64,000 nucleotides of DNA, taken from the NCBI GenBank assembly GCA_025057015.1, contig JANWYG010000022.1, positions 26,864 through 90,863 of the forward strand, in the 5' to 3' direction. Of the stretch, positions 27,085-60,212 are shown piece after piece (the first letter of the stretch is position 1; every line of letters begins with the position of its first letter). A model generated the notes under the pieces. It was not told the DNA's origin, searched no databases, and worked only from the letters and a program-made list of their open reading frames with translations. The position numbers were made by a program, and so were the translations under genes. This stretch comes from Blastocatellia bacterium (lineage in GTDB: Bacteria; Acidobacteriota; Blastocatellia; Chloracidobacteriales; JADJPF01).

Positions 27085-27489
27085 ATGTTTTGTCCAAACT
27101 GTGGAGTAGAAAACGAGCGGGCGGACTATTGCCGCAAGTGCAACACAAATCTTGCTCTCGTCTCTAAGTTTATACGTAGCAACGACTCGGTCTTGCAACG
27201 CAGCCGGCTACTTACTAGGACTGGTCTTGTAGGCATAGTGATTTCTGAAGGCGTTGCATGGACGTTAGCGGCCTTGCTACTGTTTGTGGTTCTAATACTT
27301 ACTGGCACGGTGCTCTTGCCAAGGGAACCTTCTACTACGAGAGATATAGTCTATGCGTCGGTCATTTTGGTTCTGCTTATTCTTCTGTGCGGAGTTCCGT
27401 TGCTGCTCGGCCTGGTGCTGATACTAAAGGACCTGACATATACGCCAAAGTCTCCTAATGCCAGGGGATTACAGAATAAGCCCGAATGA
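27085..27489 (+). CDS. Zinc-ribbon protein with two TM helices
   Basis: MFCPNCG...YCRKCNTNL followed by two hydrophobic segments. Confidence 0.75.
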   Translation: MFCPNCGVENERADYCRKCNTNLALVSKFIRSNDSVLQRSRLLTRTGLVGIVISEGVAWTLAALLLFVVLILTGTVLLPREPSTTRDIVYASVILVLLILLCGVPLLLGLVLILKDLTYTPKSPNARGLQNKPE

Positions 27490-28379
27490 AAAGGCTAGTT
27501 ATTGCCTGGATTCTGCTTGCAAGCAACTCGATTTTTGCTGCGGAGCTAGTCTCTACGAGGCTGTTGCATGGCGAAAGAGTTTTAATAGGTGACCTCGTAG
27601 TGCTTGAAGTATTGGTACGGCACGAATGGGATAAGCAGTATACGCTACATATAGACCGACGAGGACTGGTCGGACTAGAGATAGGAAGAGACCTAGAGGT
27701 AAAAATTGTTTCTGATGAAGGTCGGTATATCGTTACTAGCTATCGTCTTAGGCTAATTCCTTTTGTTACTGGGCAGGTACCGTTGCCACCGTTTGTCATA
27801 GAAGGTCAAGGCGAGAGGTTGCAGACACCTGCACTTAAGCTCGAAGTCTCTGCTGTTACAGAACCCCAGGCGTTCGAGATAAAGGATGTCAGATTGCTGC
27901 CGTCGCCACCTACAGAAAGCAAGCTAGGAGTCAGTATCGCAGTACCAGTGTTTTTCTCAATACTGCTATATTTGGCGCTGCATTATACAACTCGGCTGCC
28001 GAATAGACCGCTTGCAGATTCCGTTTTGCCAGCTTCAGACTTGAAACCCGAGGATGAGGCTATAAGTAGGATACGTGCTTTGTTATCTACTGAGACTGAT
28101 GTCAAGATGTTCCACGTGGAACTTTCTGCTGTGATGAGTTGGTACGTGGCCAAACGCTTTTCATGCCCGGCACAGGAGTGGACTACTACGGAAATTTTGC
28201 ACTATTCTGAGGGTATGGGACTACCGCCGCTTTTGCGTGACGTGTATTCCGAAGTATTGCCGCAGTGTGATCTAGTGAAGTTTGCCTGCGTACGTCCAGA
28301 ACGTTCTGTCTATGAAGGTATGGCCTATCGGGTCATCGATCTATTTACCGCACTAGGAGTGCTGCGTGAAGGTGAGTAG
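27486..28379 (+). CDS. BatD-like / Bat-operon membrane protein
   Basis: Signal peptide, Ig-like region, IKD, TM helix, TT.EI, DLVKFA motifs. Confidence 0.75.
   Translation: MKRLVIAWILLASNSIFAAELVSTRLLHGERVLIGDLVVLEVLVRHEWDKQYTLHIDRRGLVGLEIGRDLEVKIVSDEGRYIVTSYRLRLIPFVTGQVPLPPFVIEGQGERLQTPALKLEVSAVTEPQAFEIKDVRLLPSPPTESKLGVSIAVPVFFSILLYLALHYTTRLPNRPLADSVLPASDLKPEDEAISRIRALLSTETDVKMFHVELSAVMSWYVAKRFSCPAQEWTTTEILHYSEGMGLPPLLRDVYSEVLPQCDLVKFACVRPERSVYEGMAYRVIDLFTALGVLREGE
28108..28123. promoter_or_regulatory. Intragenic parS-like site (15/16 match)
   Basis: TGTTCCACGTGGAACT, encoding MFHVEL. Confidence 0.7.
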
Positions 28380-28381
28380 GG

Positions 28382-29374
28382 ATGCGCTTCGAGTATCCAT
28401 GGGTACTGCTACTGCTTACGTTGAACTTTCCGCTAGCGTTTCTTCTAGGTTCAAAGGCTAGATTACGTCTTCCTAGTACTACGGCTATTTCTAGAACTGT
28501 AGGCAAGAGCCTCAGGTTAAAACTCGCCCGTTACAGGCCGTTTCTTCAGTTGCTCGTGTTTAGCTTGATAGTAATAGCTCTTGCTAGGCCACAGACGCTG
28601 CGGCAAGTCGAACAGGTCAAAGCAGAGGTGATAGACATCATCATAACCTTAGACATCTCGCTGAGCATGGGAGCGCGAGACTTTGGCACAGAAACAAGGC
28701 TAGAAGTTGCAAAGCGCTTGCTTGATGATTTTGTAGCAAGGCGCAAAGGTGACAGGTTAGGTCTGATAACTTTCGCCGCTTATAGTCAACTGCGCTGCCC
28801 ATTGACGCTCGATCATGAGGTGCTCCGGCAAGTGCTTTCTGAAGTGGAGCTAGTTGATCGCGAGGATCTGGAGGCCAACGGTACTGCTATAGGACTGGCT
28901 ATATCGAGCGGGGTGGATCACCTAAGGCATTCTGCCACGAAGAGTCGCATTCTAGTCTTGTTGACCGATGGAGACAACAACATTTCTACCGTAGAGCCAG
29001 AAACAGCTGCTGAGGTTGCACGCGTCATGGGTGTGAAAGTCTATGCCGTAGGCATAGGAAGCCAAGATTTTGTAGAGATGCCAAGCACTGATCCTGCCGA
29101 TCCAGTCGGAACTTATAAGTTACAGCGAGCAGGCTTTAATGAGGAGCTGCTTAAGACAATAGCGGCTATCACTTCTGGAAAATATTTTCCAGCAGCCGAT
29201 TCTAACTCGCTTGAGGGCGTGCTTGCTGAAATAGATAATCTCGAACGAACGAAAATGGAGCTCGAGCGGTACGAACATTACGGCGAACGGTATACCGTAT
29301 TTGTTTTCCTGGCTACCGGGTTATTGCTGCTGGATCTGCTGCTTGAACACACCTACTTGAGGGTACTGCCGTAG
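28382..29374 (+). CDS. batA: BatA-like vWA domain protein
   Basis: ALARPQ, DISLSM (MIDAS), DRLGL..F, PLTLD, GTAIG, LTDG. Confidence 0.88.
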   Translation: MRFEYPWVLLLLTLNFPLAFLLGSKARLRLPSTTAISRTVGKSLRLKLARYRPFLQLLVFSLIVIALARPQTLRQVEQVKAEVIDIIITLDISLSMGARDFGTETRLEVAKRLLDDFVARRKGDRLGLITFAAYSQLRCPLTLDHEVLRQVLSEVELVDREDLEANGTAIGLAISSGVDHLRHSATKSRILVLLTDGDNNISTVEPETAAEVARVMGVKVYAVGIGSQDFVEMPSTDPADPVGTYKLQRAGFNEELLKTIAAITSGKYFPAADSNSLEGVLAEIDNLERTKMELERYEHYGERYTVFVFLATGLLLLDLLLEHTYLRVLP

Positions 29375-30369
29375 TGGAAGATTTTCGTTTCAAACACCCG
29401 GAGTACTTGTATCTGATATTGCTGCTACCGCTGCTGGCACTAGTGATACATCTGCTAATAGCTCGCAGACGCAAAGCTATGGAGCTGTTCTGTAGGAACG
29501 CAGACCGTTCCCTAGCTCTGAGAATTCACTTATATAGGGCGCGAGCAGGACTGACGATCTTGGTATTTCTGTCTCTGCTTCTTGCTCTTGCTCGCCCACA
29601 GTGGGGAGCTGCAGAAGGAGTCAAAGCTCAGGGCGTAGACATGATCTTGGCTGTAGATGTTTCACTTAGCATGTTGGCAGACGACGAACTACCTTCTAGA
29701 CTGGACAGAGCCCGCCGAGTTGCTAGGGATGTTGTCGATCACTTCAAGTCGGGCCGTATCGGAGTGATAGCCTTTGCCGGTAGCAGTAGTGCTACTGTGC
29801 CGCTTACTTTTGACGTTGCTGCAGTACATAGTTTCTTGAAAGACCTGAACGTCAGACTGGCAGATGTTCCCGGCACATCTGTAGCAGGAGCCATTCGCCG
29901 GGCAGTCAAAAGCTTAAAGGACCTGCAGCGAAGCTCTAAGCTTGTAATAGTAGTTTCTGACGGTGAAGACCAGGATGATGCTCCACTAAGAGCAGTCGCT
30001 GCAGCTGCAAAAGAAGCTGCCGAGTATAATGTGGTGATAGTTACCGTGGGTATAGGCTCTACGCAAGGCAGCACAATACCGCTAGGATCTTTGGGGCTAC
30101 TTGGAGTAAAGCGCGACTCGGAAGGGAAGGTAGTAATCACTCGGCTGGAAGAAGAAACTTTAAAAGTGGCAGCGGAAACTACAGGAGGCATTTATCTACG
30201 TGCTGAGCCAAACGGTAGTGAAGTCAACGAGATAATCAAGTTTGTCGAGCGCATGAAAAAAGGCGAAATCGAGGTCAATGCTCGAGATCGCAAAGATCGG
30301 TATCATTATCCCCTCTGTGCAGCTCTGGTCTTATTGCTTGTGGAAATGCTGATTCTACGAAAAACTTAA
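29374..30369 (+). CDS. batB: BatB-like vWA domain protein
   Basis: ALARPQWG, DVSLSMLA.D..PSRL, SDGED, GIGS..G..IP, VITRL.E..L. Confidence 0.85.
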   Translation: MEDFRFKHPEYLYLILLLPLLALVIHLLIARRRKAMELFCRNADRSLALRIHLYRARAGLTILVFLSLLLALARPQWGAAEGVKAQGVDMILAVDVSLSMLADDELPSRLDRARRVARDVVDHFKSGRIGVIAFAGSSSATVPLTFDVAAVHSFLKDLNVRLADVPGTSVAGAIRRAVKSLKDLQRSSKLVIVVSDGEDQDDAPLRAVAAAAKEAAEYNVVIVTVGIGSTQGSTIPLGSLGLLGVKRDSEGKVVITRLEEETLKVAAETTGGIYLRAEPNGSEVNEIIKFVERMKKGEIEVNARDRKDRYHYPLCAALVLLLVEMLILRKT

Positions 30370-30426
30370 ATTTTTGTGGCAACAGTTAGGCTAATTCGGA
30401 CGATGACTTGAGTAGGAGAAGTTGGA

Positions 30427-30696
30427 ATGCAGCACCAAGGGAATCTTGAAATAGCTCTTACTCTTGAGATTTTAGAGAAAATAGGTATAGAAAGGGCAAC
30501 CGCTATTTGGAAATGGCTTGTGGATCCTGAAGGTAATCCTGTTCCTGAAGGACTGAAAGGCGAAGAAGTGATGGGGATTTATCTTCGCAATACCAAGTTG
30601 CTCGAACGTTTGAGGGAAATAGTCGCCAGTCTAGAGAGCCTACGTGGCGGTATAGCAAACAAGCCGCAATTGAATAAAGGACCTATGCGCATCTGA
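30427..30696 (+). CDS. Hypothetical protein (89 aa)
   Basis: AGGAG upstream; fills the gap ahead of the lipase-like gene. Confidence 0.6.
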   Translation: MQHQGNLEIALTLEILEKIGIERATAIWKWLVDPEGNPVPEGLKGEEVMGIYLRNTKLLERLREIVASLESLRGGIANKPQLNKGPMRI

Positions 30697-30718
30697 GTTG
30701 AAAACATAGGAGGGATGT

Positions 30719-31873
30719 ATGGGTTTCAATATAGGTAATGTCGCAAATAATGTTGTAAATAATGTTCGAAATACACTCGATCAAATAGGCAGCCTGGTAA
30801 GAGATGTAGCGCAAAATGTTACCATTCAGAGTTTGTCCAGGCTTAGGGACATAGCAGATTTTGCGTCAAATCTGACGGGAGCGCGTATAGGAAGTGGGCT
30901 GCTGGCGCCGCGAGGAGGTTTTCCTATAAGTCCGCTTGGCTACTCGGATAAGGTAGTAGAAGCTGGTGTAAAACTTGCGAAAGCACTCTTCTCGAAATCA
31001 CCTGATGCTGAATATGATGGTAGAATTGAAACTTATCCGAAGGGACAGAATCTTGGATCAGAGCCCAAAGTATATATCATAAACGGAATACAGACGGATC
31101 TAGCCGGCCGTGAGGCTTTGGCTGTGGAGACGGCTAACAAGCTGGGGGTAAACGTCAACCTGATACATAACTCTACGGGTGGTAGTGGTCTAATAGGCGC
31201 TGCTAAAGATTTAGCTGAGTGCATAGGTCAGCTTGTGTTGGGAATACCCAGCAAACCTTCTCAAACGCTAGCAAACGAGATTTTTAAGAATCTTACTGCG
31301 AATCCTCCTAAGAAAATGGAGTTGATAGGCTACAGTCAGGGCAGCATAATGGTGGCACATGCTGTCTCAATGGCGATAGAGAGGCTCAAGAGAGCCGGTT
31401 ATAGCGACGAGCAGATCCGCTCGTTGATGAGCCAAAGCGTCAAGGTCAAGTTGGTAGGGACACCTATAGACATAAGCAATCCGATGCACACCATCTTAAA
31501 CGTACCGGGAGGCAAGCATTTAAGCTGGTATTTTACCATGGAAGACCGGTTGATTTCTGGGCGAGGAGTGCCGTTTAATGAGGTAGTAAATAGCGAAGCT
31601 GGTCGACGCGGCGAACTTGCTGAGGCGAACTTCCACACTATCCGTCATGAAAAGGATCTAGTAGCTACTGTGGTTCGAGACCTTGGTATTGATGATCTCG
31701 CCAGGTTGGCAAGTCCTGCGACCAGGGGGCTGTATTTAGCAGAGTTAGGTGCTAGAATAGCATACTCGCTGATCGGCTCGGCCGTAGAGGGAGGTGATCC
31801 CTTTGCCTATCATGGTTACTACAACGTCTACTTGCCTTATATGTTGAGTGAAGGGTTGTTACGAGCGAAATAG
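30719..31873 (+). CDS. Alpha/beta-hydrolase (lipase-like) protein with an Asn/Val-rich N-terminal extension; putative secreted effector
   Basis: AGGAGG RBS; IINGIQT, LIHNST, GYSQG nucleophile elbow, HEKDLV, late His (AYH). Confidence 0.75.
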   Translation: MGFNIGNVANNVVNNVRNTLDQIGSLVRDVAQNVTIQSLSRLRDIADFASNLTGARIGSGLLAPRGGFPISPLGYSDKVVEAGVKLAKALFSKSPDAEYDGRIETYPKGQNLGSEPKVYIINGIQTDLAGREALAVETANKLGVNVNLIHNSTGGSGLIGAAKDLAECIGQLVLGIPSKPSQTLANEIFKNLTANPPKKMELIGYSQGSIMVAHAVSMAIERLKRAGYSDEQIRSLMSQSVKVKLVGTPIDISNPMHTILNVPGGKHLSWYFTMEDRLISGRGVPFNEVVNSEAGRRGELAEANFHTIRHEKDLVATVVRDLGIDDLARLASPATRGLYLAELGARIAYSLIGSAVEGGDPFAYHGYYNVYLPYMLSEGLLRAK

Positions 31874-31884
31874 CGGAGTGATTG

Positions 31885-32421
31885 ATGAATCAAGACGTAG
31901 CTCAACTAGCTGAAATGGTGAGGCAGTCCCTGAAGGAGTCTCTTCAGGGACGTAAATCTTTTAGGGAAGCTTTCGGGCTAAGCGAAGAAGAAATAACTGC
32001 ACTTGCTGGCGCTGCTTGCGAGATGGCCGAACAAGGCCGCAACGAAGAAGCGCTCGCTATGCTCGAAGGGCTCTTTGTTCTTGATCCGGAAAATCTCCAT
32101 GTGCACAACTGTCTAGGTTCGCTTTATATGCGTCTAGACAGGAGGAAGCTTGCCGAACAGGAGTTTGAATACGTGCTTGCACGCACACCTGACGATATAG
32201 CTGCGAATACCAACCTCGGAGAACTGCTTTTTGAGCAAGGTGAGTTGGAACGTGCTGTAGAGAAGCTTCGCAAAGCTGTAGAGCTTGATCCGGAAGGGAA
32301 AAGTCTTTTTGCGAATCGTGCTCGCAGCATACTTGGCCTTATAGCTACTCTCGCAAAAGAGCTTCAAGAAAACGGCCCTGAGGCTATGGAGCAACTGCGA
32401 AAGCAGCTTCTGTCAAAGTAA
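31885..32421 (+). CDS. TPR protein resembling SycD/LcrH type III secretion chaperones
   Basis: G.SFREAFGLSEEE, EQGRNEEA...EGL..LDP, three TPRs, DPEGKS..ANRAR. Confidence 0.75.
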   Translation: MNQDVAQLAEMVRQSLKESLQGRKSFREAFGLSEEEITALAGAACEMAEQGRNEEALAMLEGLFVLDPENLHVHNCLGSLYMRLDRRKLAEQEFEYVLARTPDDIAANTNLGELLFEQGELERAVEKLRKAVELDPEGKSLFANRARSILGLIATLAKELQENGPEAMEQLRKQLLSK

Positions 32422-32551: not shown

Positions 32552-33190
32552 ATGGAAATTAAGCGCCTGAAATTTGATAGCCAGGGTAAGCTCCCTGTTA
32601 TCATACAAGACTCAAAAACTTGTAAAATACTTGCATTGATCTATGTAGGAGCTGATGAACTCTCGCAGATTTTACAGACCGGGTGTTTGGAGCGTTTTAA
32701 CTTGCCGGCGGCAAGCTTGGCAGACGTAAGGGTAAGTAGCGAGTATGATTCACTTCTGATGCTTATCAGAGCTAATAGCGAAGTTGCATTGGGTAGCTAC
32801 CGCAGTTGCTTTGGGGGCGAACCAGATTCAAAATCCCAACAAGAGCAAGCACGCCTCGATGTTGTTAGGGAAAGTTCCCTCGATCTAGGTATCTTGCTAG
32901 ACGAGCTATATCGGCTAATAACTGATCGTAAGAAGCATCGGCCTGAAGGTTCGTATACCACGTATCTTTTCAATTCTGGGCCTGATAGGATCTTTAAAAA
33001 GATAGCGGAGGAGGCTGTAGAAGCTATCATAGCGGCAAAGAATCGTTCGAAACCGCAGGTTATAGCCGAGGTTTCAGACCTTCTCTACCATGTACTTGTG
33101 ATGCTATGTGAAATGGAGATACGTCTAGAAGATGTCTATCATGAGCTGAAAAAGAGAATGGGTGGGCAAGTAACTTCTGTAGTACAGTAG
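32552..33190 (+). CDS. hisIE: HisIE-like protein: degenerate PRA-CH domain plus apparently intact phosphoribosyl-ATP pyrophosphatase
   Basis: LKFDSQGKLPVIIQD start; EGSYTTYLF, KKIAEEAVE, EVSDLLYH intact; SRSR/KGETSG/DCD/CHTG motifs absent. Confidence 0.85.
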   Translation: MEIKRLKFDSQGKLPVIIQDSKTCKILALIYVGADELSQILQTGCLERFNLPAASLADVRVSSEYDSLLMLIRANSEVALGSYRSCFGGEPDSKSQQEQARLDVVRESSLDLGILLDELYRLITDRKKHRPEGSYTTYLFNSGPDRIFKKIAEEAVEAIIAAKNRSKPQVIAEVSDLLYHVLVMLCEMEIRLEDVYHELKKRMGGQVTSVVQ

Positions 33191-33197
33191 CAATGCA

Positions 33198-34679
33198 ATG
33201 ACCTATCGTCCAAAAAACTATGAAGAGTTTGCAGCTTACGCTTCTACGGCTAACGTCATTCCGGTAAGCAAGAAGTTGCCTTCCGACATGCTAACACCCG
33301 TAGCAGCCTACCTGAAGTTGAGAGGGGCAGGGAAGCGCTCTTTCTTGCTTGAATCGATAGAGGGCAATGAAAGGATCTCGCGTTATTCCTTCATTGGCGT
33401 AGATCCCTACTTGGTAATTAAGGCGCGAGGTGAAAATCTAGAGTACGAGCAAGGCGACGGTATCGTAAGCGTCGAGAAGGGTGATATATTCACGTCTCTA
33501 AGCAAGTACCTGGCTAGCTTTGTAGTGGCAAAGGTTCCCGACATGCCGCCATTCGTAGGAGGAGGTGTTGGCTACATAGGATATGATGCTATAAGGAGCT
33601 TAGAGCGACTTGGTGGTGGGTTGGCGGACGACCTAGGAATATATGACTCCGTAGTGATGTTCTTTTCTGCAGCGGTTATTTTTGATCATGTCAAACAGAG
33701 CTTACTCATAGTAGCAGGTGTATTTGTAAGTCAGGAAGGTGCTAGCAGGCAGCTTTATGAATCGGCACTTGCTACGATATCCGATATAGAGAACGTACTT
33801 TTCGGTGTCGTTCCGGCTATTGACAAAACTACAAGGACTTTGCCACCGGCTATCCGTAGCAACGTTACTAAGGAAGGCTTTGAGTCGGCAGTAGAAAAGA
33901 TAAGGGTTCATATTAGGGAAGGGGAAATACTGCAGGCAACTCTTTCGGTCAGGGTTGTAATAGATAATTTTGCTCCTGCTTTTCAGCTCTATAGAGCGAT
34001 ACGTACGCTCAGTCCTGCGCCTTATATGTTTTATCTGGACATTGGGGAGTACCAGTTGATGGGTGCCTCATATGACATGCTGTTGCGCTGCACAGGACGA
34101 CGGCTTGACTATAGGATTGCGGCCGGAAGCTGCGGGCGAGGTGCTACTGATGTAGAAGATCTGTTGCTTGCAGAGGAGCTACGTGCAGATGAGAAAAAGG
34201 TAGCAGAGCATACTCTAGCGGTGGATCTGGCAAGGGGAGATCTAGGCCGTGTCTGTGATTATGGGTCGATAGAGTTATTTGAACTGATGATCGTAGAAAA
34301 ATACTCTCAGATGATGCAGATGGTTTCGAGCATCAAAGGTCGGCTAGCTAACAATAAGACCAGCATCGATGCTTTGGCTGCATGTTTACCGGCAGCTAAG
34401 GTGTCTGGGGCCCCCAAGCTTCGTGCAATTAAGTTAATGGATGAACTAGAAAACACTCGCCGTGGCCCTTACGCAGGTGTTATTCTTTACTTAGATTATT
34501 CCAGAAATCTAGACTCTTGTATTACAATAAGTACAGTCATTTGCAAGCAAGGTCAGGCTTACGCGCAGGCAGGCGAAAGCATAGTAGCAGATTCTGTTCC
34601 TGACAAAAAGTACCTAGAGACTATAAACAAAGTCCGCCTGCTTCTTAAATCGGTAGAGATAGCTGAGAAAGAAATTTAG
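33198..34679 (+). CDS. Anthranilate synthase component I (TrpE/MST) paralog, probably catalytically impaired
   Basis: FLLES, RYSFIG, PPFVGGGVGY, AEH...VDLAR, SGAPKLRA; several catalytic positions substituted. Confidence 0.88.
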   Translation: MTYRPKNYEEFAAYASTANVIPVSKKLPSDMLTPVAAYLKLRGAGKRSFLLESIEGNERISRYSFIGVDPYLVIKARGENLEYEQGDGIVSVEKGDIFTSLSKYLASFVVAKVPDMPPFVGGGVGYIGYDAIRSLERLGGGLADDLGIYDSVVMFFSAAVIFDHVKQSLLIVAGVFVSQEGASRQLYESALATISDIENVLFGVVPAIDKTTRTLPPAIRSNVTKEGFESAVEKIRVHIREGEILQATLSVRVVIDNFAPAFQLYRAIRTLSPAPYMFYLDIGEYQLMGASYDMLLRCTGRRLDYRIAAGSCGRGATDVEDLLLAEELRADEKKVAEHTLAVDLARGDLGRVCDYGSIELFELMIVEKYSQMMQMVSSIKGRLANNKTSIDALAACLPAAKVSGAPKLRAIKLMDELENTRRGPYAGVILYLDYSRNLDSCITISTVICKQGQAYAQAGESIVADSVPDKKYLETINKVRLLLKSVEIAEKEI

Positions 34680-34725: not shown

Positions 34726-37700
34726 ATGCTAGTCAAGCGTTGTCCAAGCTGTCAGAATGAGTATTCGGCGACGCTTCCTACCTGCCCGCAAGATGGTACG
34801 TCGTTGAGAGAAGTGATAGCTGTGGATCCGATGATAGGACAGGTTTTGGAGGGAAAGTATAGGATAGAGTCACTTTTGGGTTCTGGCGGAATGGCAGCCG
34901 TCTACCTTGCTACTCATAGAGAATTAGATAGTAAGGTAGCTATTAAGGTATTGAGTTCAGAGTCGCTCAAGAACTCTCTTGCAGTAGCCCGTTTTCGGCG
35001 TGAGGCACAAGCTGTAGCTAAGATAAGGCATCGTTCGGTTGTGGCCATCTATGATATTGGTAAGCTTCCGAGCGGAAACACCTTTCTAGTAATGGAGTAC
35101 ATAGAAGGTCATTCGCTACGGGAGGAACTGAAGAAGCACAAAAGATTGGACATTAGAAGGGCGGTACAGATTGCTACAGAAATCTGTGAAGGCATGCAAG
35201 CAGCCCACGACGTCGGAATAATACACCGGGACTTGAAGCCAGAAAACATAATGATAGAGTCGCGTAAGAGCAACAGCTACATCAAAATAGTAGACTTTGG
35301 CGTTGCTGAGCTCTGCGAAAATGCCGTAAACGACGCTCTGACTCGCTTGACGGAAGCGGGTATGATGGTAGGCACGCCCTACTATATCTCCCCTGAACAA
35401 TGCAAAGGTGAAGAACTAGACCATCGGTCTGACATTTACTCGTTGGGAATAATGCTCTACGAGCTGCTTACAGGCGAAGTGCCGTTCAGGGGCAGGACCT
35501 TATCGGCAGTGATACTGCAACATGTCTCTGAGCCTGCACCCTCGATTCGACAGGTACGGCCCGAAGTGAGTAAGGCACTGGAATCAGTGGTGCTAAGCGC
35601 CCTGTCTAAGTCCAAGGAGGATAGGCCGGCCAGCATGTTGGAGTTTGCACAGGAGCTGACCCGCGCAGTTGAGCAGACTGCTAGCCTAGGGAACACTATT
35701 GTTGGCTCGTCGCTATCTGTCTCAAATTTGCCCTCAGCTACTAATACGGGAAGCATAAAACGTACTACTGGTCAGATTCGCAGAACCGGGATGCTCACTC
35801 ATGATAGTCTGACCGGGCTACATTCTTATGTCTACTTCTTAGGACAACTGGAAGAAGCCGTCGCCCGAGCACTGCAAACAGGTGAGTCGCTAGTAGTAGC
35901 TTTAATTGGGATAGACCGATTTAAGAAGTTCAATGAACATGGGTACTTAGTCGGTGATCAGGTACTGCGCGAGGTTGCTACGCTTGTTAACAAGCGAGTG
36001 CCAAGCGAAGCAAAACTGAGCAGGCTCGAAGGTGATAACTTTGTATTGATGCTGACCGGTCAGTATGCGAAAGAAGCCGACTTACTGCTTGAAAATATTG
36101 TTAGGACTGTGGAGGAGACCGAAATCCGCTTGCCAGTCTTGCCAGAAAGCTTTGCAAGAGTGAGTATTTCCGTCGGTACAGCCGTGCTGCGTGAACATGC
36201 CCAGACGGCTTCCGAGTTGATCGATTTCGCTAAACAGTCGCTCAGACAGGCAAAACAACGTAAATACGCTGAATTAGCTACTGACTCTACTCCGCAAATT
36301 AGCTTCGAGCACTTTGTCGGACGCAGAAAAGAGCTTGAAAAGCTCCAAAAAGAGCTCGAGCTTACCGTCTCTGGCAAAGGTAGAGTCTTGTTTATATCCG
36401 GTGATGCAGGCGTAGGAAAGTCCCGCCTAGTGGATGAGTTTCGGCGTAGATTAATAGGCAAGGATATCCTCTTCCTACAAGGGCGGTTTTACGAATCTGG
36501 GGGTACGGTGCCTTACAAGGTTTTCTACGATTCTTTGCGCAGCTCTATCCACTACTTGGCGGAAAATTCAGAAGAGCTAGAACTCATATTCGGTCCGCTT
36601 TCTGAGCGAGTAAGGCAAGACTTTGCTGACGACGACTCGATTTCTTCTCTGCTTGGCAGCGTAACGCTCAGCGGTAATGCGGAGCAGGAGAAGTATAAGC
36701 TCTTTGATTATTTGTCGAGGATATACTCCAGCCTTTCGCATGTAAGGCCAGTAGTGCTTTTCTTAGACGATCTACAATGGGCAGATGAGCTGGCGTTGGA
36801 CTTTCTATCCTACCTTACTAGGGTCGTCCAACATAGCCGTGTCTTTGTCATAGCTACGATGCGGGAGTGGGAAGTCTCGTCCGAGCAGAGTCCCGTCCGT
36901 AGTTGGCTGCGGCAGATGGGTAGATACTGCTCCTATGAGCAGATCAAGCTTTCGCCGCTTACTGAATCTGAGGTACGTCAGATAATAGACCAAACTTTTG
37001 GGAAGATTCAGATCTCACCCGGAACACTATCACTTATCTGCTCTGAGACTAAAGGCAACGCTTTCTACTTAATGGAAGTGATGAGGTTGCTCATTCAGGA
37101 CGAGGTAATAAGGTGGGTCGACGGCAGGTGGCGCGTCGAGGACGTAAATGAGATCCGTCTGCCTACATCGGTTGTCGACCTTGTGGAAGCACATCTTGCA
37201 AAGCTGCCGGATAAGACCCTGGAGATATTCGTCACCGCTGCAGTGCTTGGAGATGGGTTCTCTTTCGATGTACTTGCATCGGTTACGGATATGGATGAAG
37301 ACGATTTGTTGCCAATTATCGAGGAGGGACTAAAAAAGCGCATCATCAAAGAAGAGGTAAGCGGACGTGAAGAACGCTATGTATTCTATCAGAGTACCAT
37401 GCGCAAGGTTCTCTATGAGCGTGTCAGCAGACGGCGTCGTAAAAAGCTGCACCAACAGATAGGGCACAAGCTGGAAGAGATGTATGGCTCTAAGGTGAAT
37501 AAGATAGCTGCCGAACTCGCTTACCACTACTATCAGGCAGAAGATTATGGCCGTTCGCTCAAGTATTCGATAGAAGCCGGAAATCTGGCTTGGCGAGTAC
37601 TAGCTGTCTCAGAAGCGCTCAAGTACTACGAGTGGACAGAAAAGTCGATTCGCAATCTAATGGCGACTCTGCGTGAAGAAGGCGGCAAAGGATCTAACCA

Positions 37701-38916
37701 AGTTCTGCAACTTGCCGCTTGTGGCCTACACATAGAAGTGGATGCGTTGGCGTTGTACCACCTCAACTACGGTAGATTGTTGATGCAGATAGGCCATCAT
37801 AGCAAAGCTGAGGCAGAGCTGCGTCAAACGCTCGAACTTGCCAGACAGCTGAAATCGCTAAAGCTGATGGGACGTGCGTTTACAGCCCTAGGTGAGCTTT
37901 ATAGGCAGTACGGACAGTTGACACGTGGCCTTGAGTATGGAGAACAGGGACTTACTTTGCTCAGCTCTACTGAAGATACTGAATGGGAAGTTCAGGCGCT
38001 GTTAGTCGTAGGAGCTGCTCATGAGGGCCTAGGGGCATTTTCTTCTGCACTAGAAACCTACAAAAGTGCTCTGGCATTAGCGCGTAAGCTCCGCGACCAA
38101 ATTAACGAGGCTAACGCTCTCTGGGGTATAGGATTTACTTATTACAGGTTTGGACAGTATGAACGAGCTAGAGCTTCGGCCCAACAAGGGCTAGATATAG
38201 CCACCAAAAGCAACGATAAGCTGGGACAACAACGGTGCCATAGCTTGCTTGGAAGCGTCTACCTGGGTATAGGACGATTTGAGGAAGGGCTGAAGCACTT
38301 TGAGTCTGCTCTTAGAATAGCGCGCGAGCTAGGGTATAGACTTAGCGAATCAGTCATATTGAACAACATAGGCGAGTGTTTTAGGCTGCGTAAAATGTAC
38401 AAGGATGCACGAGAGAACTATGAACAGGCGCTTCTGCTCGCCCAAGAGACGAACGATCGAGTAACTCAAGGCATCGTGAAACTCAGCCTTGGATTGGTAG
38501 AGCAGGACAAAGGAAACTACAATAAATCTCTGGAACTGTTGGAAGAAGCTCTGCGTCTTGCCTGTGAAACAGGAGCTACGCCCACACAACTAGAAATCTC
38601 CCTTGCTCGAGGGAAATCGCTGTTCGAGCTCGGCAAGATTGAGGAGGCCTTGGAGCACTACCATCACGCGCTGGACCTGGCGCGACATTCCGGTAGCCCA
38701 GTTTTCGAATGGCAAGCGCTCTATGGTCTCGCAAAGTGTGAACGTCGTCTTGGAAATGCGGCCGAAGCACTGAAGCTAGTACAGCTCAGCTTGGAAATTG
38801 TCGAGCAAATGTCGTCTGATCTGAAAAGTTCCTCTGATAGAGAGAATTTTCTCAGAGATAAACAGATGCTTTATCTCGATCTAGTGGAGCTTACTGAAGC
38901 TAAGAAGATAGTCTAG
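34726..38916 (+). CDS. Zinc ribbon - Ser/Thr kinase - degenerate GGDEF - STAND ATPase - TPR multidomain protein
   Basis: CPSC..CPQDG; GSGGMA, VAIK, HRDLKPEN, DFG; HDSLTGL..DRFK..EGDNF; GDAGVGKS, LFLDDLQWAD; MalT-type TPRs. Confidence 0.92.
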   Translation: MLVKRCPSCQNEYSATLPTCPQDGTSLREVIAVDPMIGQVLEGKYRIESLLGSGGMAAVYLATHRELDSKVAIKVLSSESLKNSLAVARFRREAQAVAKIRHRSVVAIYDIGKLPSGNTFLVMEYIEGHSLREELKKHKRLDIRRAVQIATEICEGMQAAHDVGIIHRDLKPENIMIESRKSNSYIKIVDFGVAELCENAVNDALTRLTEAGMMVGTPYYISPEQCKGEELDHRSDIYSLGIMLYELLTGEVPFRGRTLSAVILQHVSEPAPSIRQVRPEVSKALESVVLSALSKSKEDRPASMLEFAQELTRAVEQTASLGNTIVGSSLSVSNLPSATNTGSIKRTTGQIRRTGMLTHDSLTGLHSYVYFLGQLEEAVARALQTGESLVVALIGIDRFKKFNEHGYLVGDQVLREVATLVNKRVPSEAKLSRLEGDNFVLMLTGQYAKEADLLLENIVRTVEETEIRLPVLPESFARVSISVGTAVLREHAQTASELIDFAKQSLRQAKQRKYAELATDSTPQISFEHFVGRRKELEKLQKELELTVSGKGRVLFISGDAGVGKSRLVDEFRRRLIGKDILFLQGRFYESGGTVPYKVFYDSLRSSIHYLAENSEELELIFGPLSERVRQDFADDDSISSLLGSVTLSGNAEQEKYKLFDYLSRIYSSLSHVRPVVLFLDDLQWADELALDFLSYLTRVVQHSRVFVIATMREWEVSSEQSPVRSWLRQMGRYCSYEQIKLSPLTESEVRQIIDQTFGKIQISPGTLSLICSETKGNAFYLMEVMRLLIQDEVIRWVDGRWRVEDVNEIRLPTSVVDLVEAHLAKLPDKTLEIFVTAAVLGDGFSFDVLASVTDMDEDDLLPIIEEGLKKRIIKEEVSGREERYVFYQSTMRKVLYERVSRRRRKKLHQQIGHKLEEMYGSKVNKIAAELAYHYYQAEDYGRSLKYSIEAGNLAWRVLAVSEALKYYEWTEKSIRNLMATLREEGGKGSNQVLQLAACGLHIEVDALALYHLNYGRLLMQIGHHSKAEAELRQTLELARQLKSLKLMGRAFTALGELYRQYGQLTRGLEYGEQGLTLLSSTEDTEWEVQALLVVGAAHEGLGAFSSALETYKSALALARKLRDQINEANALWGIGFTYYRFGQYERARASAQQGLDIATKSNDKLGQQRCHSLLGSVYLGIGRFEEGLKHFESALRIARELGYRLSESVILNNIGECFRLRKMYKDARENYEQALLLAQETNDRVTQGIVKLSLGLVEQDKGNYNKSLELLEEALRLACETGATPTQLEISLARGKSLFELGKIEEALEHYHHALDLARHSGSPVFEWQALYGLAKCERRLGNAAEALKLVQLSLEIVEQMSSDLKSSSDRENFLRDKQMLYLDLVELTEAKKIV

Positions 38917-38937: not shown

Positions 38938-39645
38938 ATGAAGCTGCTAAAAGTAACACTGATTTGCCTGCTGGTTTGCCTGTCTGCGTCTCCGACGCAG
39001 AAGAAACGTTCATCTCGACCTGGCAGAATGCAACAAGCAACGCAGCCTGTTAAGCCCCCGCCGCCTGTACCTCTGCCGCAGGAACCGGAAATCATCCGGC
39101 CGCCGGAGAAAAAGCTCTCCATAGAAGAAATTAGCAATCTGCGCGCTGTGATGGAGACTTCCTTAGGTAACATAGTTCTGGATTTCTATCCTGAAGCTGC
39201 TCCAGAACACGTTCGACAGTTCGTCTGGCTTAGCCAAGTAGGTTACTTCGACGGCATGTCGTTCAGTAGGATACTGCCTAAGCTGCTTATCCAAAGCGGA
39301 AACTATGCCTCTTGGCAGGAAGATAATCCTAATCTGAAAAAGCGCTTCGACATACCGAAGCTCAAGGCAGAATATAGTCCCGCTGCCCGACATGACCGCG
39401 GAGCCTTGTCAATGGCCAGACCTAACGACGATCCAGACGGCGGTACGTGTCACTTTTTCATCTGTGCTACGCGTATACCAGCTCTCGATGACAAATACAC
39501 AGTCTTCGGATATGTTTCAGAAGGCATAGAAGTAGTAGAAAAGATAGCCGAGCAGCCTGTTGATGGTGATAAGCCCTTGAATAGGATAGAAATTAAGCGG
39601 GTTAGCATAGTGCAGAAGGCTTCCAATGATCCTAGTAATAGATAA
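38938..39645 (+). CDS. Exported cyclophilin-type peptidyl-prolyl isomerase
   Basis: Signal peptide, Pro-rich linker, GYFDG..FSR, HDRGALSMAR, LDDKYTVFG. Confidence 0.88.
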   Translation: MKLLKVTLICLLVCLSASPTQKKRSSRPGRMQQATQPVKPPPPVPLPQEPEIIRPPEKKLSIEEISNLRAVMETSLGNIVLDFYPEAAPEHVRQFVWLSQVGYFDGMSFSRILPKLLIQSGNYASWQEDNPNLKKRFDIPKLKAEYSPAARHDRGALSMARPNDDPDGGTCHFFICATRIPALDDKYTVFGYVSEGIEVVEKIAEQPVDGDKPLNRIEIKRVSIVQKASNDPSNR

Positions 39646-40192
39646 TTATGACTCCTTCACCTATAACCTGGTGCAGTACATAGGAGAATTTGACCAGTCC
39701 GTCGCAGTCTATCGTAATGATCGGATCAGCATAGAAGAGATAAAGCGACTGTCGCCCAAGCGAATAGTAATCTCACCAGGCCCGGGACGTCCAGAGACTG
39801 CGGGAATTAGCCTAGAAGTAGTGCGTCAGCTGGGCAGCTATGTTCCCATACTAGGAGTATGTCTGGGTCATCAAGTAATAGCTGTCGCTTTTGGTGCTAA
39901 AGTAGTACACGCCCCTTACTTGATGCATGGTAAGACTAGCGAAATCTGTCATGACGGCCTTACTATATTCAAGGGGCTAGAGTATCGTTTTGCCGCAACG
40001 CGCTATCATTCGCTGATAGTTGACCGAGATAGCATACCACCGGTGCTTGAGGTAAGTGCTACGACGCCTGACGGGCTGGTGATGGGCCTGCGCCATAGGG
40101 AGTATCCAATAGAGGGTGTGCAGTTTCATCCAGAGTCGATAATGACTACTTGTGGTAAGACGCTAATTAAAAACTTTCTGAGCTTGAGATAA
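39626..40192 (+). CDS. trpG: Anthranilate/aminodeoxychorismate synthase component II (glutamine amidotransferase)
   Basis: IDNYDSFTYNL, SPGPG, GVCLGHQ, RYHSL, QFHPES (complete Cys-His-Glu triad). Confidence 0.93.
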   Translation: MILVIDNYDSFTYNLVQYIGEFDQSVAVYRNDRISIEEIKRLSPKRIVISPGPGRPETAGISLEVVRQLGSYVPILGVCLGHQVIAVAFGAKVVHAPYLMHGKTSEICHDGLTIFKGLEYRFAATRYHSLIVDRDSIPPVLEVSATTPDGLVMGLRHREYPIEGVQFHPESIMTTCGKTLIKNFLSLR

Positions 40193-40499
40193 AGACTAAG
40201 CTGCTCGAATCAAGCTGAGCTACTTGCTTTTCAGCCTTCAGGCATTGAGAAGACAGTTGCCCTGTGGCTGAGCAGACTTTTGACTCGAAGAGATGTCTCT
40301 TTATCAGCTCGACAGGCTCTAGTAAATCGTACTCAAGCCGATTAATGGCCTTGAAAGAGGACTTTTTCGTCCTCTCTAGGCACATTGGCCCGTCAGCATA
40401 CTCTGAAATCCACGGCTCGGCCTTAAAGGTCCTGCTAGAGAAGAGGTGACCTGTCCTGGTGGATGCAGGACCTAGCCTAGGCGACAGGTATATCGTCAT
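40167..40499 (-). CDS. Possible hypothetical protein
   Basis: ATGA overlap with the PNP stop codon and fills a 300-bp gap; no recognisable motif. Confidence 0.3.
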   Translation of the reverse strand: MTIYLSPRLGPASTRTGHLFSSRTFKAEPWISEYADGPMCLERTKKSSFKAINRLEYDLLEPVELIKRHLFESKVCSATGQLSSQCLKAEKQVAQLDSSSLVFISSSESF

Positions 40500-58217: not shown

Positions 58218-60212
58218 TTATTTTGAAGCAGTTTGTTCAGGGCCAAATATCTTGTCGAGGGTCTCTTTATATACGACCAACTTGCCGCTTTCCTTGAGTT
58301 TCTTCTTTATGCCGTCGATGTAAGCGTTGAAGGTCATTTCGCGTCGATCGAAAGCAAGTCTCTCTTCAATTGACCTCGACTGTTCGTTGAATTTGGTCAT
58401 ATCGGGTTCGGTGCGCTTGACTGCAGCTATGGCAATGTATCTATCACTTACTACGACAGGTTTATCGGTTGCAGTACCTTCCTTCAGCTGCATTATAGCG
58501 GCCTCTAATTGTGTTCCGGAACCTGCGGAGTCAAGATAAGAGCCAACCTTGTAGTCATCTTTGGTGTAGGTCTTGAGTCCTTCTTTTTCTGCGCTGGCTT
58601 TGAGTGCGTCAGCTTTACCTGCAGCAGCAGCAATTGCTGCTTGCACCTTTTGTTTGCAAATTTCTCTGGCTTTCTCTTGTTTGTACTTCTGCTCTACTTT
58701 GGTCTTAGCTTCATCGAAACTCGGAATAAGGCCAGGTTCACGGGTGTCTGCTAGCATAGGTATAGCAAAGCCGCCGCGTATACCTACTTTCTCACCAACG
58801 TCGCCGGGCTTGAGTTTAGCGGTAGCTTCCTCGAACGAAGGATTGCTGCCTATATCTGGCACGTCATCGCCTTCTGCAAAGAAGGGAGTTTGTTTATATG
58901 TCTCTTCAGGTTTGCTGCCTATCTTTTCGGCTATGATTGCTGCTACTGCTTTTATATCTTTCTTTTCTCGCAGTAGTTTTGCAGCTTCATCAGCTATCTC
59001 TGAAGCACGTTTGTATGAAAGTCGGTTGCGTGCCGAAGCAAGTAGTGCTTCTTTTGCCTCTTCGAAGGTCTTAGTCCGGCGTTCGACAAGTTTGAGTATG
59101 TAGTATGCCTTGCCTTCGTGGATAGGATCGCTTATCTCGCCTTCTTTTAGGTTGAGAGCATTCATCAAGTAACTGCCGGGTTTGATGTCTTCTCTCTTGA
59201 TGAAACCAAGGTCACCTCCCTTGTCTTTTGTAGTGGTGTCTTGGGAGTAACCGCGTGCAAGTGCGGCAAAATCTTCTGGCTTGCCTGTGAGAGTGCCACG
59301 TGCGCGAGATACGAGTTCGTTTGCTTTCTCGCGTGCCGTAGGTTCGTCTTTATCTACAAGATACTTGATCACTATCTGACTTACTCGGATGCCAGCTATG
59401 TGCTTTTCAGGATCGAAGTCCTTTCTGAGTTCTTCGTCAGATATGGTCATTGTTTTTGAGACTTGTTCTTGACTGACGTAGACATAGTCTATCTTGCGTT
59501 GTTTTTTATCTGATTTGAAGTCTTCCTTTCTTTGCTCGAAGAAGGCTCTTAGCTCCTCTTCTGTGGGTTTTATCTTATCTAGGAACTCTGCCGGCTCGGC
59601 CACAGTATAGACGAGGTTAAAGGAGGTATTCTCGCGATTAAACTGTTCTTGTATTTCTTTCTTCGAGATGGAGACGCTTCCGGTGACAAAACTGCGTAGC
59701 TTTTCCTCAGCAAGGCTTTCTCTCAGAGATTGCTCGTACTCTTCTAGAGACTGGCCAGAACGTTCTACGAACTTTTTATACTTGTCAAATCCTACCCATT
59801 TTCCGTCGACAGTGAATTGTTCACGGATATGGTTTTGCAGTTCTCTATCGGTGGTTTCTAGGCCTAGGCGTTCGACCTCCATAGCTATGATTTTCCTCTT
59901 TATCAGGTTGTTTAACGCCGTTTTGTCAAGCCCCATAGTCTTGAGCGAGGCATAAGTCATGCCTGAATCGTCCTTTGACAGAAACCCCTGATATGCTCTC
60001 ATCAGCAGGTCCAGACTTTTGGTATATTCCAACGCTGTGATTTCTTTGTCTCCTACCTTAGCTATAAGTTCGTCTTCGCTGACGTTGCTAGAAGTTCCTG
60101 GAATACCCCTAGTGGGCGCGTAAAACATTACCATACCGAATACTACTATGACTGAGATAAAAACCCAGATGAGTTTCTGAGAGCGTTTCCTCTCGTTGAG
60201 AAACCTGAGCAT
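58218..60212 (-). CDS. PpiD/SurA-like membrane-anchored periplasmic chaperone with parvulin domain
   Basis: N-terminal TM, IAKVGDKEIT SurA-N domain, FAALARGYSQD..TKDKGGDLG rotamase. Confidence 0.88.
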   Translation of the reverse strand: MLRFLNERKRSQKLIWVFISVIVVFGMVMFYAPTRGIPGTSSNVSEDELIAKVGDKEITALEYTKSLDLLMRAYQGFLSKDDSGMTYASLKTMGLDKTALNNLIKRKIIAMEVERLGLETTDRELQNHIREQFTVDGKWVGFDKYKKFVERSGQSLEEYEQSLRESLAEEKLRSFVTGSVSISKKEIQEQFNRENTSFNLVYTVAEPAEFLDKIKPTEEELRAFFEQRKEDFKSDKKQRKIDYVYVSQEQVSKTMTISDEELRKDFDPEKHIAGIRVSQIVIKYLVDKDEPTAREKANELVSRARGTLTGKPEDFAALARGYSQDTTTKDKGGDLGFIKREDIKPGSYLMNALNLKEGEISDPIHEGKAYYILKLVERRTKTFEEAKEALLASARNRLSYKRASEIADEAAKLLREKKDIKAVAAIIAEKIGSKPEETYKQTPFFAEGDDVPDIGSNPSFEEATAKLKPGDVGEKVGIRGGFAIPMLADTREPGLIPSFDEAKTKVEQKYKQEKAREICKQKVQAAIAAAAGKADALKASAEKEGLKTYTKDDYKVGSYLDSAGSGTQLEAAIMQLKEGTATDKPVVVSDRYIAIAAVKRTEPDMTKFNEQSRSIEERLAFDRREMTFNAYIDGIKKKLKESGKLVVYKETLDKIFGPEQTASK

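Follow-up and report, generated by a model that had tools for sequence, protein, structure and literature searches.

The subject of this analysis is trpE', a gene located in a 64,000-nt stretch of a Blastocatellia bacterium contig (JANWYG010000022.1, positions 26,864–90,863; assembly GCA_025057015.1), the whole of which is referred to below as the window. The open reading frame (ORF), Pfam domains and motifs of trpE' (33198..34679, plus strand; protein P0001) identify its product as a full-length, 493-amino acid (aa) homologue of anthranilate synthase component I in which the catalytic motifs are eroded. The gene lies in a tightly packed row. Upstream, hisIE' (32552..33190, plus strand) ends 7 nt before trpE'; downstream follow, all on the plus strand and assigned by domain scan, the gene for a 1396-aa Ser/Thr kinase–GGDEF–AAA_16 (STAND-like)–TPR protein (34726..38916), a gene for a cyclophilin-type peptidyl-prolyl isomerase (38938..39645) and trpG/pabA, encoding a glutamine amidotransferase (39626..40192). 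The gaps within this hisIE'-to-trpG block are 7, 46 and 21 nt, and the last 20 nt of the cyclophilin gene are shared with trpG (39626–39645). Directly 3' of trpG, a terminator-like hairpin (40203..40220, plus strand), followed by a convergent gene, occupies the place taken by trpD-trpC-trpF in relatives. A scan for promoters and terminators yielded counts at or below the shuffle expectation, with no terminator-like site before the end of trpG and the hairpin only after it. This arrangement suggests that hisIE', trpE', the kinase and cyclophilin genes and trpG form a single transcription unit.

The same row can be followed in four relatives from the family of the window, in the order hisF, hisIE, trpE, a gene for an approximately 1400-aa protein, cyclophilin, trpG and trpD, as established by domain scans for two genomes (G001 and G003) and by matching ORF lengths for the other two (G005 and G006). 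In G001, trpD is followed by trpC and trpF, and hisF is separated from hisIE by a methyltransferase gene. The kinase-GGDEF gene is an odd conserved insertion within this trp gene cluster: a protein of about the same length (about 1400 aa, 56–58% identical) is encoded between trpE and trpG in all four relatives, where it was identified by length and identity rather than by domains. In the window, hisF and trpDCF are gone from the positions that they occupy beside the block in the relatives, yet the 1.5-kb trpE' has been kept. The neighbouring hisIE' is half dead: the HisI part has lost its Cys/His metal ligands and carries a 13-residue deletion of the core, and the Pfam PRA-CH domain is undetected, whereas the HisE (PRA-PH) half is conserved as in the relatives (86.5 bits), even though hisF, hisD, hisG and hisI are absent from the genome.

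TrpE' retains both domains of component I (Pfam Anth_synt_I_N, 113.1 bits; Chorismate_bind, 227.3 bits), and motif comparison shows what has changed within them. The feedback-site motif LLES (residues 50–53; 33345..33356) is retained, and NPSPYM reads SPAPYM (272–277; 34011..34028), with N272S and S274A at invariant columns and P275, Y276 and M277 kept. Further along the protein, SPE is replaced with SYD (291–293; P292Y and E293D; 34068..34076); the Glu of this motif, which we take to be the general acid, is thus an Asp. PIAGTR became IAAGSC (307–312; P307I, I308A, T311S and R312C; 34116..34133). The stretch KKVAEHTLAVDLARGD (333–348; 34194..34241) reads KKVAEH..RGD for KEVAEH..RND (E334K, M340L, L341A, G345A and N347G), so that Lys replaces the first Glu of the first ExxE pair, E337 is kept and RND has turned into RGD. 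YSHVMH is found as YSQMMQ (369–374; H371Q, V372M and H374Q; 34302..34319), both His residues being Gln, and AGTVSGAPK as AAKVSGAPK (399–407; G400A and T401K; 34392..34418). I.IRT reads ITIST (442–446; R445S; 34521..34535) and QAGAG reads QAGES (457–461; A460E and G461S; 34566..34580). Finally, EYIETVNK is present as KYLETINK (471–478; 34608..34631), where Lys replaces the first Glu of the second ExxE pair (E471K) and E474 is kept. All these motifs are on the plus strand. Besides the two glutamates, the lysine of GAPK, the RRG.Y.G motif and Q246 are kept.

These changes were placed against 119 proteins listed by a homologue search (P0002–P0120), which are 46–61% identical to TrpE' and whose source names assign it to the class Blastocatellia of the Acidobacteriota. 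The protein departs from the consensus at 31 of the 121 columns that are invariant in this set and at 26 of the 92 columns conserved at 95–99%. In a leave-one-out control, each of the 119 homologues changes a median of zero and at most five otherwise-invariant columns, and 93 of them change none; the pattern in TrpE' is real and well past chance. At the chorismate site, E293D, T311S, H371Q/H374Q, R445S and G461S all fall on columns invariant in the 119 homologues, and of the four glutamates of the Mg2+ site, two have been exchanged (E334K and E471K). An earlier reading of this DNA, made from the sequence only, had listed motif changes of this kind and proposed that the catalytic site is eroded. 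Each of the nine altered motifs that it listed is present in the translation and departs from residues invariant among the homologues, and the erosion is borne out by the motifs together with the altered invariant columns. The same sequence-only reading held that the changes are concentrated at the active site, which is true in part. Taken together, they are spread equally over the domains, with 14 of 57 columns conserved in at least 95% of the homologues changed in residues 1–220 and 42 of 155 in residues 221–493. The most radical replacements (E to K twice, T to K, R to S, A to E and P to Y) do gather in the active-site motifs.

To relate the changes to binding sites, residues named in published work were placed on TrpE' by motif and constant offset rather than by a computed alignment to the respective structures; the roles of chorismate-site residues other than G328, T329, H398 and G485 (Serratia TrpE) are presumed. 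In a review, G328, T329, H398 and G485 of Serratia TrpE are named as binding chorismate, and S40, P291, M293, V453 and Y455 as binding tryptophan (PMC10464499). Correspondingly, three of the four chorismate-binding positions are changed in TrpE', with G310 kept and S311, Q374 and S461 new. For MbtI, a homologue of TrpE, a structural study describes Mg2+ as bound directly by E297 and E434 and via water by E294 and E431 (PMC8008425); placed in this way, the two glutamates replaced in TrpE' (K334 and K471) are both at water-mediated positions. By these residue lists, five of the eight catalytic positions are changed, compared with a background of 26%, a modest enrichment (binomial about 0.03, calculated by hand). 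Among the tryptophan-binding positions of the same list, S53, P275, M277 and Y431 are kept, and I429, a V-to-I replacement, is at a column that is variable among canonical homologues, so that at most one of five has changed. The claim that the tryptophan motifs survive accordingly stands for LLES and, as far as the residues named in that source go, for most of the tryptophan contacts, but not for NPSPYM, where N272S and S274A alter columns invariant in all 119 homologues. The former active site has also changed in charge: the two E-to-K replacements, T to K, R to S and A to E amount to a net gain of about three positive charges. Judging from these replacements, the added charge may approximate the contribution of Mg2+ and would suit metal-free binding of a carboxylate ligand.

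The fold is that of TrpE. By sequence, TrpE' matches the solved TrpE chains 7bvd (E = 1.5e-87) and 5cwa (E = 1.8e-83). An AlphaFold model built with a 35-sequence alignment (predicted template modelling score, pTM, 0.83; mean predicted local distance difference test score, pLDDT, 78.9) has TrpE 5cwa as its top fold match (template modelling score, TM, 0.80), with the aminodeoxychorismate (ADC) synthase component PabB 7pi1 at TM 0.76. Nevertheless, the protein falls below the cut-off of every NCBIfam model of the TrpE superfamily. The TrpE equivalog model TIGR00564 gives 438.5 bits against a cut-off of 517.7, compared with 577.8 bits for the canonical relative in G001. The PabB model TIGR00553 gives 214.5 bits (cut-off, 328.4), and TrpE' has I-A-A-G-S in place of the P-I-K-G-T with its lysine. 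The isochorismate and salicylate synthase models TIGR00543 and TIGR03494 score 107.0 (cut-off, 224.75) and 112.8 bits (cut-off, 325.15), respectively. TrpE' is almost certainly inactive as an anthranilate synthase.

The genome as a whole offers no use for such an activity. With 3.33 Mb in 23 contigs, it is 97% complete, and the eight other genomes of the family range from 4.6 to 10.3 Mb; the metagenome runs that contain this DNA are from hot springs. Profile searches of the genome found no TrpA and no TrpC and, for TrpD and TrpB, nothing above the cut-off, whereas all 14 control genomes matched. Likewise, tblastn searches of the genome with TrpF, TrpC, TrpD and HisF of a relative gave no match, whereas TrpG, HisIE, TrpE and the SurA-like protein of the same relative were found. 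Thus, the pathway downstream of anthranilate (trpD, trpC, trpF, trpB and trpA) is missing from a nearly complete genome. HisI, HisD and HisG were not found in the genome either, and for HisA/F there is only a partial match of 26.9 bits. The organism is very probably auxotrophic for both tryptophan and histidine. Because trpA and trpB are absent and trpD-trpC-trpF have been lost beside the locus, anthranilate would be without use, and with the loss of the pathway the catalytic constraint on trpE' lapsed. Chorismate synthase is encoded (381.5 bits), and another contig (C4) carries a second gene for a chorismate-binding enzyme, which has the lysine of P-I-K-G-T and, at 329.0 bits (cut-off, 328.4), qualifies as a PabB equivalog. 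The presence of this PabB explains why trpG, itself not accelerated, has been retained, its product probably serving PabB.

All close relatives of TrpE' are canonical. The nearest ones, P0002–P0004, are 60–61% identical, those from the family of the window 50–54% identical, and all have canonical motifs. In a maximum-likelihood tree, TrpE' is sister to P0002–P0004 (SH-aLRT 99) inside the family of the window (f1), nested among canonical sequences. Following a stem of 0.066, its end branch measures 0.88, compared with 0.05–0.06 for the sisters (0.72 versus 0.05–0.06 in a second tree), the TrpE' branch being about seven times as long as those of its sisters. Judging from this placement, the substitutions are specific to the lineage of TrpE' and arose in it alone. 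The sequence-only reading had named substitutions that are random and unshared among orthologues as grounds for refuting its proposal: no known orthologue has those of TrpE', yet, as described below, the changed columns are not random.

Comparison with four family relatives separates trpE' from its neighbours; the identities among relatives given here for TrpE, the kinase and TrpG leave aside the G005–G006 pair, which belongs to a single genus. TrpE' is 52–54% identical to the TrpE proteins of the relatives, which are 68–70% identical to each other across genera. The corresponding values are 46–49% versus 73–88% for HisIE, 56–58% versus 64–67% for the kinase and 72–75% versus 71–82% for TrpG, which is not accelerated. 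The acceleration of trpE' is gene-specific.

Eroded TrpE-like proteins at an orthologous position are not confined to this genome. In a sister family (f2), all 14 genomes (G009–G022, from four genera) have a second TrpE-like match besides that of the trp-operon type. The hisIE-linked loci are L047–L049, L057–L059, L063, L066 and L072–L074, and each of the ten copies that were read has an open frame and eroded catalytic motifs, with the erosion growing from genus to genus. Four loci were scanned for hisIE (G009, G010, G018 and G020), and it lies directly upstream in all of them, with a 4-nt overlap in G020. For eroded copies of three genera, TIGR00564 gives 437.9 bits (G009, the nearest genus, close to the score of TrpE'), 262.7 and 158.4 bits. 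In the tree, the f2 copies fall into a single clade (SH-aLRT 100) that has the canonical hisIE-linked TrpE of the window's family as its sister. Furthermore, TrpA is encoded in the three f2 genomes that were searched (G009, G010 and G015), and a separate canonical TrpE is found in G009, G010 and G011, in the first two within a few kb of trpA. For the eroded copies, the ratios of nonsynonymous to synonymous substitution rates (dN/dS) in close genome pairs are 0.057, 0.100, 0.194, 0.178 and 0.125, compared with 0.100, 0.165, 0.180, 0.062 and 0.072 in five pairs of canonical TrpE, with frames taken from stop to stop and hence some upstream codons included. In f2, a TrpE-derived protein without the catalytic residues is kept by selection. 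In two of the f2 genera, LLES and NPSPYM have been lost, so that the role of these copies is independent of the tryptophan pocket.

The f2 clade is small: a search of 1.84 billion representative sequences with an f2 protein returned it as three clusters only, and a scan of contigs with an f2 protein returned one locus. TrpE' came next in the representative search, with 178.0 bits compared with 174.6 for the best canonical sequence, a margin too small to count. The possibility that TrpE' is an ancient paralogue in common with f2 was considered and rejected, as the trees place TrpE' inside canonical f1. The two cases resemble each other in orthologous position, intact ORFs and erosion at largely the same columns. 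They differ in that the f2 copies stem from a separate, older event and, in the genomes searched, coexist with a canonical TrpE (G009, G010 and G011) or TrpA (G009, G010 and G015), and in that purifying selection could be measured in f2.

For TrpE' itself, a direct measure of purifying selection on the eroded form is precluded because its closest relatives are 60–61% identical and canonical, and dN/dS is unsuited since synonymous sites would be saturated at that distance. Several indirect tests are informative. Neutral point mutations were simulated in the gene of a relative up to 25.6% aa divergence, the level that TrpE' shows at invariant columns; even with indels uncounted, only 3 of 5000 runs ended without a stop in the frame. 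At 20%, 15% and 10% divergence, 26, 87 and 362 of 5000 runs did so, respectively. TrpE' differs from its sisters by a single one-residue indel. Its 56 replacements at conserved columns are conservative, with a mean BLOSUM62 score of +0.09 compared with −0.57 ± 0.19 for random single-nucleotide replacements at these columns; 1 of 10000 simulations attains the score of TrpE'. Nor are the changed columns random with respect to two independently eroded TrpE-like copies of the hisIE-linked f2 clade (L017 and L018): of the 31 invariant columns altered in TrpE', 23 also differ in one or both of these copies, and among the 90 that TrpE' retains the number is 25 (odds ratio 7.5, p = 1e-5). The overlap persists at the 95% conservation level (counts 32, 24, 46 and 110; odds ratio 3.2, p = 3.5e-4).

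The adjoining dead domain provides a benchmark. Of the positions at which the four family relatives all agree, 78% are changed or deleted in HisI, compared with 30% altered in TrpE', 23% in the HisE half, 22% in the cyclophilin, 20% in the kinase and 9% in TrpG. The HisI half of HisIE' is 25–30% identical to its counterparts in the relatives, which are 82–84% identical to each other. With these indirect tests positive, trpE' does not appear to be decaying freely and still looks maintained.

The reading that we favour, and to which we assign an even chance, is that TrpE' is a non-catalytic protein of the TrpE fold, kept folded and translated, that is, a pseudoenzyme born of the loss of its pathway. 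Key catalytic residues are missing from it, whereas the frame and the fold have been held. The pathway was lost, and residues of the chorismate and Mg2+ sites were then replaced along the long branch with the frame kept open. TrpE' would be co-expressed with the other products of the hisIE'-to-trpG block and would work by binding rather than by catalysis. Candidate ligands are tryptophan, most of whose allosteric pocket is retained, and a carboxylate such as chorismate in the former active site, which is re-charged by three new lysines and is probably Mg2+-independent; as chorismate synthase is encoded, chorismate would be at hand. Instead or in addition, TrpE' may have a protein partner, for which TrpG/PabA or the adjacent kinase are candidates. 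Prediction of a complex between TrpE' and HisIE' gave a score of 0.01, which carries no weight either way.

Several observations weigh against a maintained function. The AlphaFold model is poor (pLDDT < 50) at residues 308–347, 368–378 and 403–405, that is, in the remodelled region that holds most of the altered motifs. Change is equally frequent in both domains and extends to two invariant feedback-motif positions, which is what a general relaxation would lead one to expect. A search of 5.8 billion proteins found no orthologue with the TrpE' substitutions, the best relatives being the canonical ones at 60–61% identity. The HisI benchmark presumes a similar time since loss of function. Furthermore, the contigs of a second study (run X2, depth about 6) contain a 2-nt deletion at position 33271, after which the trpE' frame stops at codon 51; if this deletion is real, a sibling strain lives without TrpE'. 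In X2, the kinase gene, which the four family relatives all have in an only mildly diverged form, is affected as well: one nucleotide is inserted at 36199, another is missing at 37610, and an Arg codon has become a stop at 38608. No difference was found in trpG or in the covered parts of hisIE'. These differences represent either errors of the run or the loss, in that strain, of the trpE'-kinase part of the block. A joint disruption of trpE' and the kinase-GGDEF-STAND gene in one strain, if true, would hint that the two work jointly. Otherwise, trpE' varies little in the run contigs, with one solid single-nucleotide polymorphism (Q457E, in X2) and three more near a contig end at partial depth. 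An assembly artefact was rejected, because a single contig of run X1, which may be the source (depth 42), spans the stretch and agrees with it throughout, as do the compared pieces of run X3.

The alternative that survives best is a slowly decaying relic without a selected function, which we regard as possible yet clearly less probable than a maintained protein. A useless ORF could be kept open and conservative for a while by polarity on the downstream kinase, cyclophilin and trpG genes or by the cost of misfolding, and the time elapsed may be short. A relic would be in keeping with the tight packing of the block, with no terminator-like site before the end of trpG, and also with the lost tryptophan pathway, a genome much smaller than those of the family relatives, the sevenfold longer branch with its substitutions confined to one lineage, the equal change in both domains including the feedback motif, the plainly dead HisI domain in the same operon and the deletion in the X2 contig. 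Such a relic fits poorly with the few open frames among the neutral simulations, with the conservative replacements and the non-random columns shared with an independent eroded clade, and with the much weaker erosion of TrpE' than of HisI. It is also hard to reconcile with the retention of trpE' while hisF and trpDCF vanished from adjoining positions.

A dedicated tryptophan sensor, in which the allosteric pocket would be kept and the signal passed to a partner, is unlikely, and it would in any case be one possible form of the non-catalytic reading, with the partly kept pocket as its sole specific support. LLES, P275, Y276, M277 and Y431 are kept, the tryptophan contacts among them being motif-mapped from the residues named in PMC10464499; a tryptophan auxotroph would gain from sensing the amino acid, and a large signalling protein is encoded directly downstream. 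However, N272S and S274A alter two invariant NPSPYM positions, replacements at conserved columns are as frequent in the N-terminal half as elsewhere, and the long-lived eroded copies of f2 lost both LLES and NPSPYM in two genera. The sequence-only reading had proposed selection for such a sensor. With trpA, trpB, trpC, trpD and trpF lost, a relaxed constraint on catalysis is enough to account for the way in which the residues changed, and positive selection need not be invoked; the even spread over both domains, the altered feedback positions and the fate of the tryptophan motifs in the older f2 clade weaken the proposal further. Least probable, and in our view doubtful, is an enzyme with altered chemistry or metal independence. 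In such an enzyme, the lysines of E334K, T401K and E471K would do the work of Mg2+, and Glu, Thr and His would have their substitutes in Asp, Ser and Gln. In its favour, TrpE' retains E337 and E474, the glutamates that bind the metal directly, along with Q246, RRG.Y.G and the lysine of GAPK; E to D, T to S and H to Q are exchanges between chemically similar residues; the cell makes chorismate; and TrpG is encoded in the block. Against it, many conserved active-site positions have changed together, including R445S and G461S in carboxylate-binding elements, no anthranilate-using enzyme is encoded, ADC synthesis is already covered by the PabB equivalog, every superfamily model scores TrpE' below its cut-off and no other sequence with its motif set was found.

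A non-catalytic, maintained TrpE' can be set beside better-known proteins. Canonical TrpE (TIGR00564; 7bvd, 5cwa and 1i7q) has the same length, both Pfam domains, the fold and the orthologous hisIE–trpG locus, and shares with TrpE' the LLES, GAPK and RRG.Y.G motifs and two of the four Mg-site glutamates; it differs in having SPE, AGT and GAG intact, in keeping the two histidines of YSHVMH, the arginine of IRT and the other two Mg-site glutamates, and in having a downstream pathway. PabB belongs to the same superfamily, has the same fold and uses the same amidotransferase partner, but carries the P-I-K-G-T lysine where TrpE' has Ala, and the genome has a PabB of its own. Outside this superfamily, the S-adenosylmethionine decarboxylase (AdoMetDC) prozyme of Trypanosoma brucei (PMC5201418) is similarly an enzyme homologue without catalytic residues that has been kept as a protein; the prozyme regulates an active partner, whereas no active TrpE is left here for TrpE' to regulate. 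A literature search by title and abstract, in which subscription journals were mostly uncovered, returned nothing relevant on a TrpE pseudoenzyme or on a dead paralogue of a chorismate enzyme, nor any account of the eroded f2 copies.

Tentatively, the two eroded lineages can be brought together. The hisIE-linked TrpE of this order might serve a further, non-catalytic purpose that persists once anthranilate is no longer made, its catalytic residues having been stripped twice independently; we hold this to be possible rather than likely. The first stripping would have occurred in the ancestor of f2, in which the place in the trp operon passed to another TrpE, and the second in the present genome, where the whole pathway was lost. 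If true, the eroded proteins would constitute a family, so far undescribed, that derives from TrpE and acts in binding or regulation. Independently of TrpE', the eroded f2 copies, under selection beside a working TrpE, indicate that an undescribed function of the TrpE fold probably exists. TrpE' also offers a dated snapshot of the passage from enzyme to non-enzyme, in which catalytic and metal-site residues go first, the same columns go twice and the fold is held. Annotation would call the gene an anthranilate synthase and thereby ascribe to the organism one of the steps towards tryptophan that it is almost certainly unable to carry out.

The surroundings of the block have also been rearranged. 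Upstream of hisIE', window positions 27486–32421 (plus strand) hold a row of genes of the Bat-like (aerotolerance) type, including two VWA proteins that resemble BatA/BatB but score below the NCBIfam cut-offs, two proteins without a family assignment and a TPR protein; the relatives have hisF, the methyltransferase gene and a SurA-like gene in this place. The SurA-like gene is now found about 25 kb away on the opposite strand (contig C13 of genome G000, 85099–87075, corresponding to about 58236–60212 in the window). Finally, two large genomes of other families, G009 (L042:8926–9657; PRA-CH, 38.7 bits) and G027 (L040:9346–10014; PRA-CH undetected), likewise encode a HisIE with an eroded HisI half and an intact HisE half; judging from these sequences, erosion of the HisI domain is recurrent in the class.

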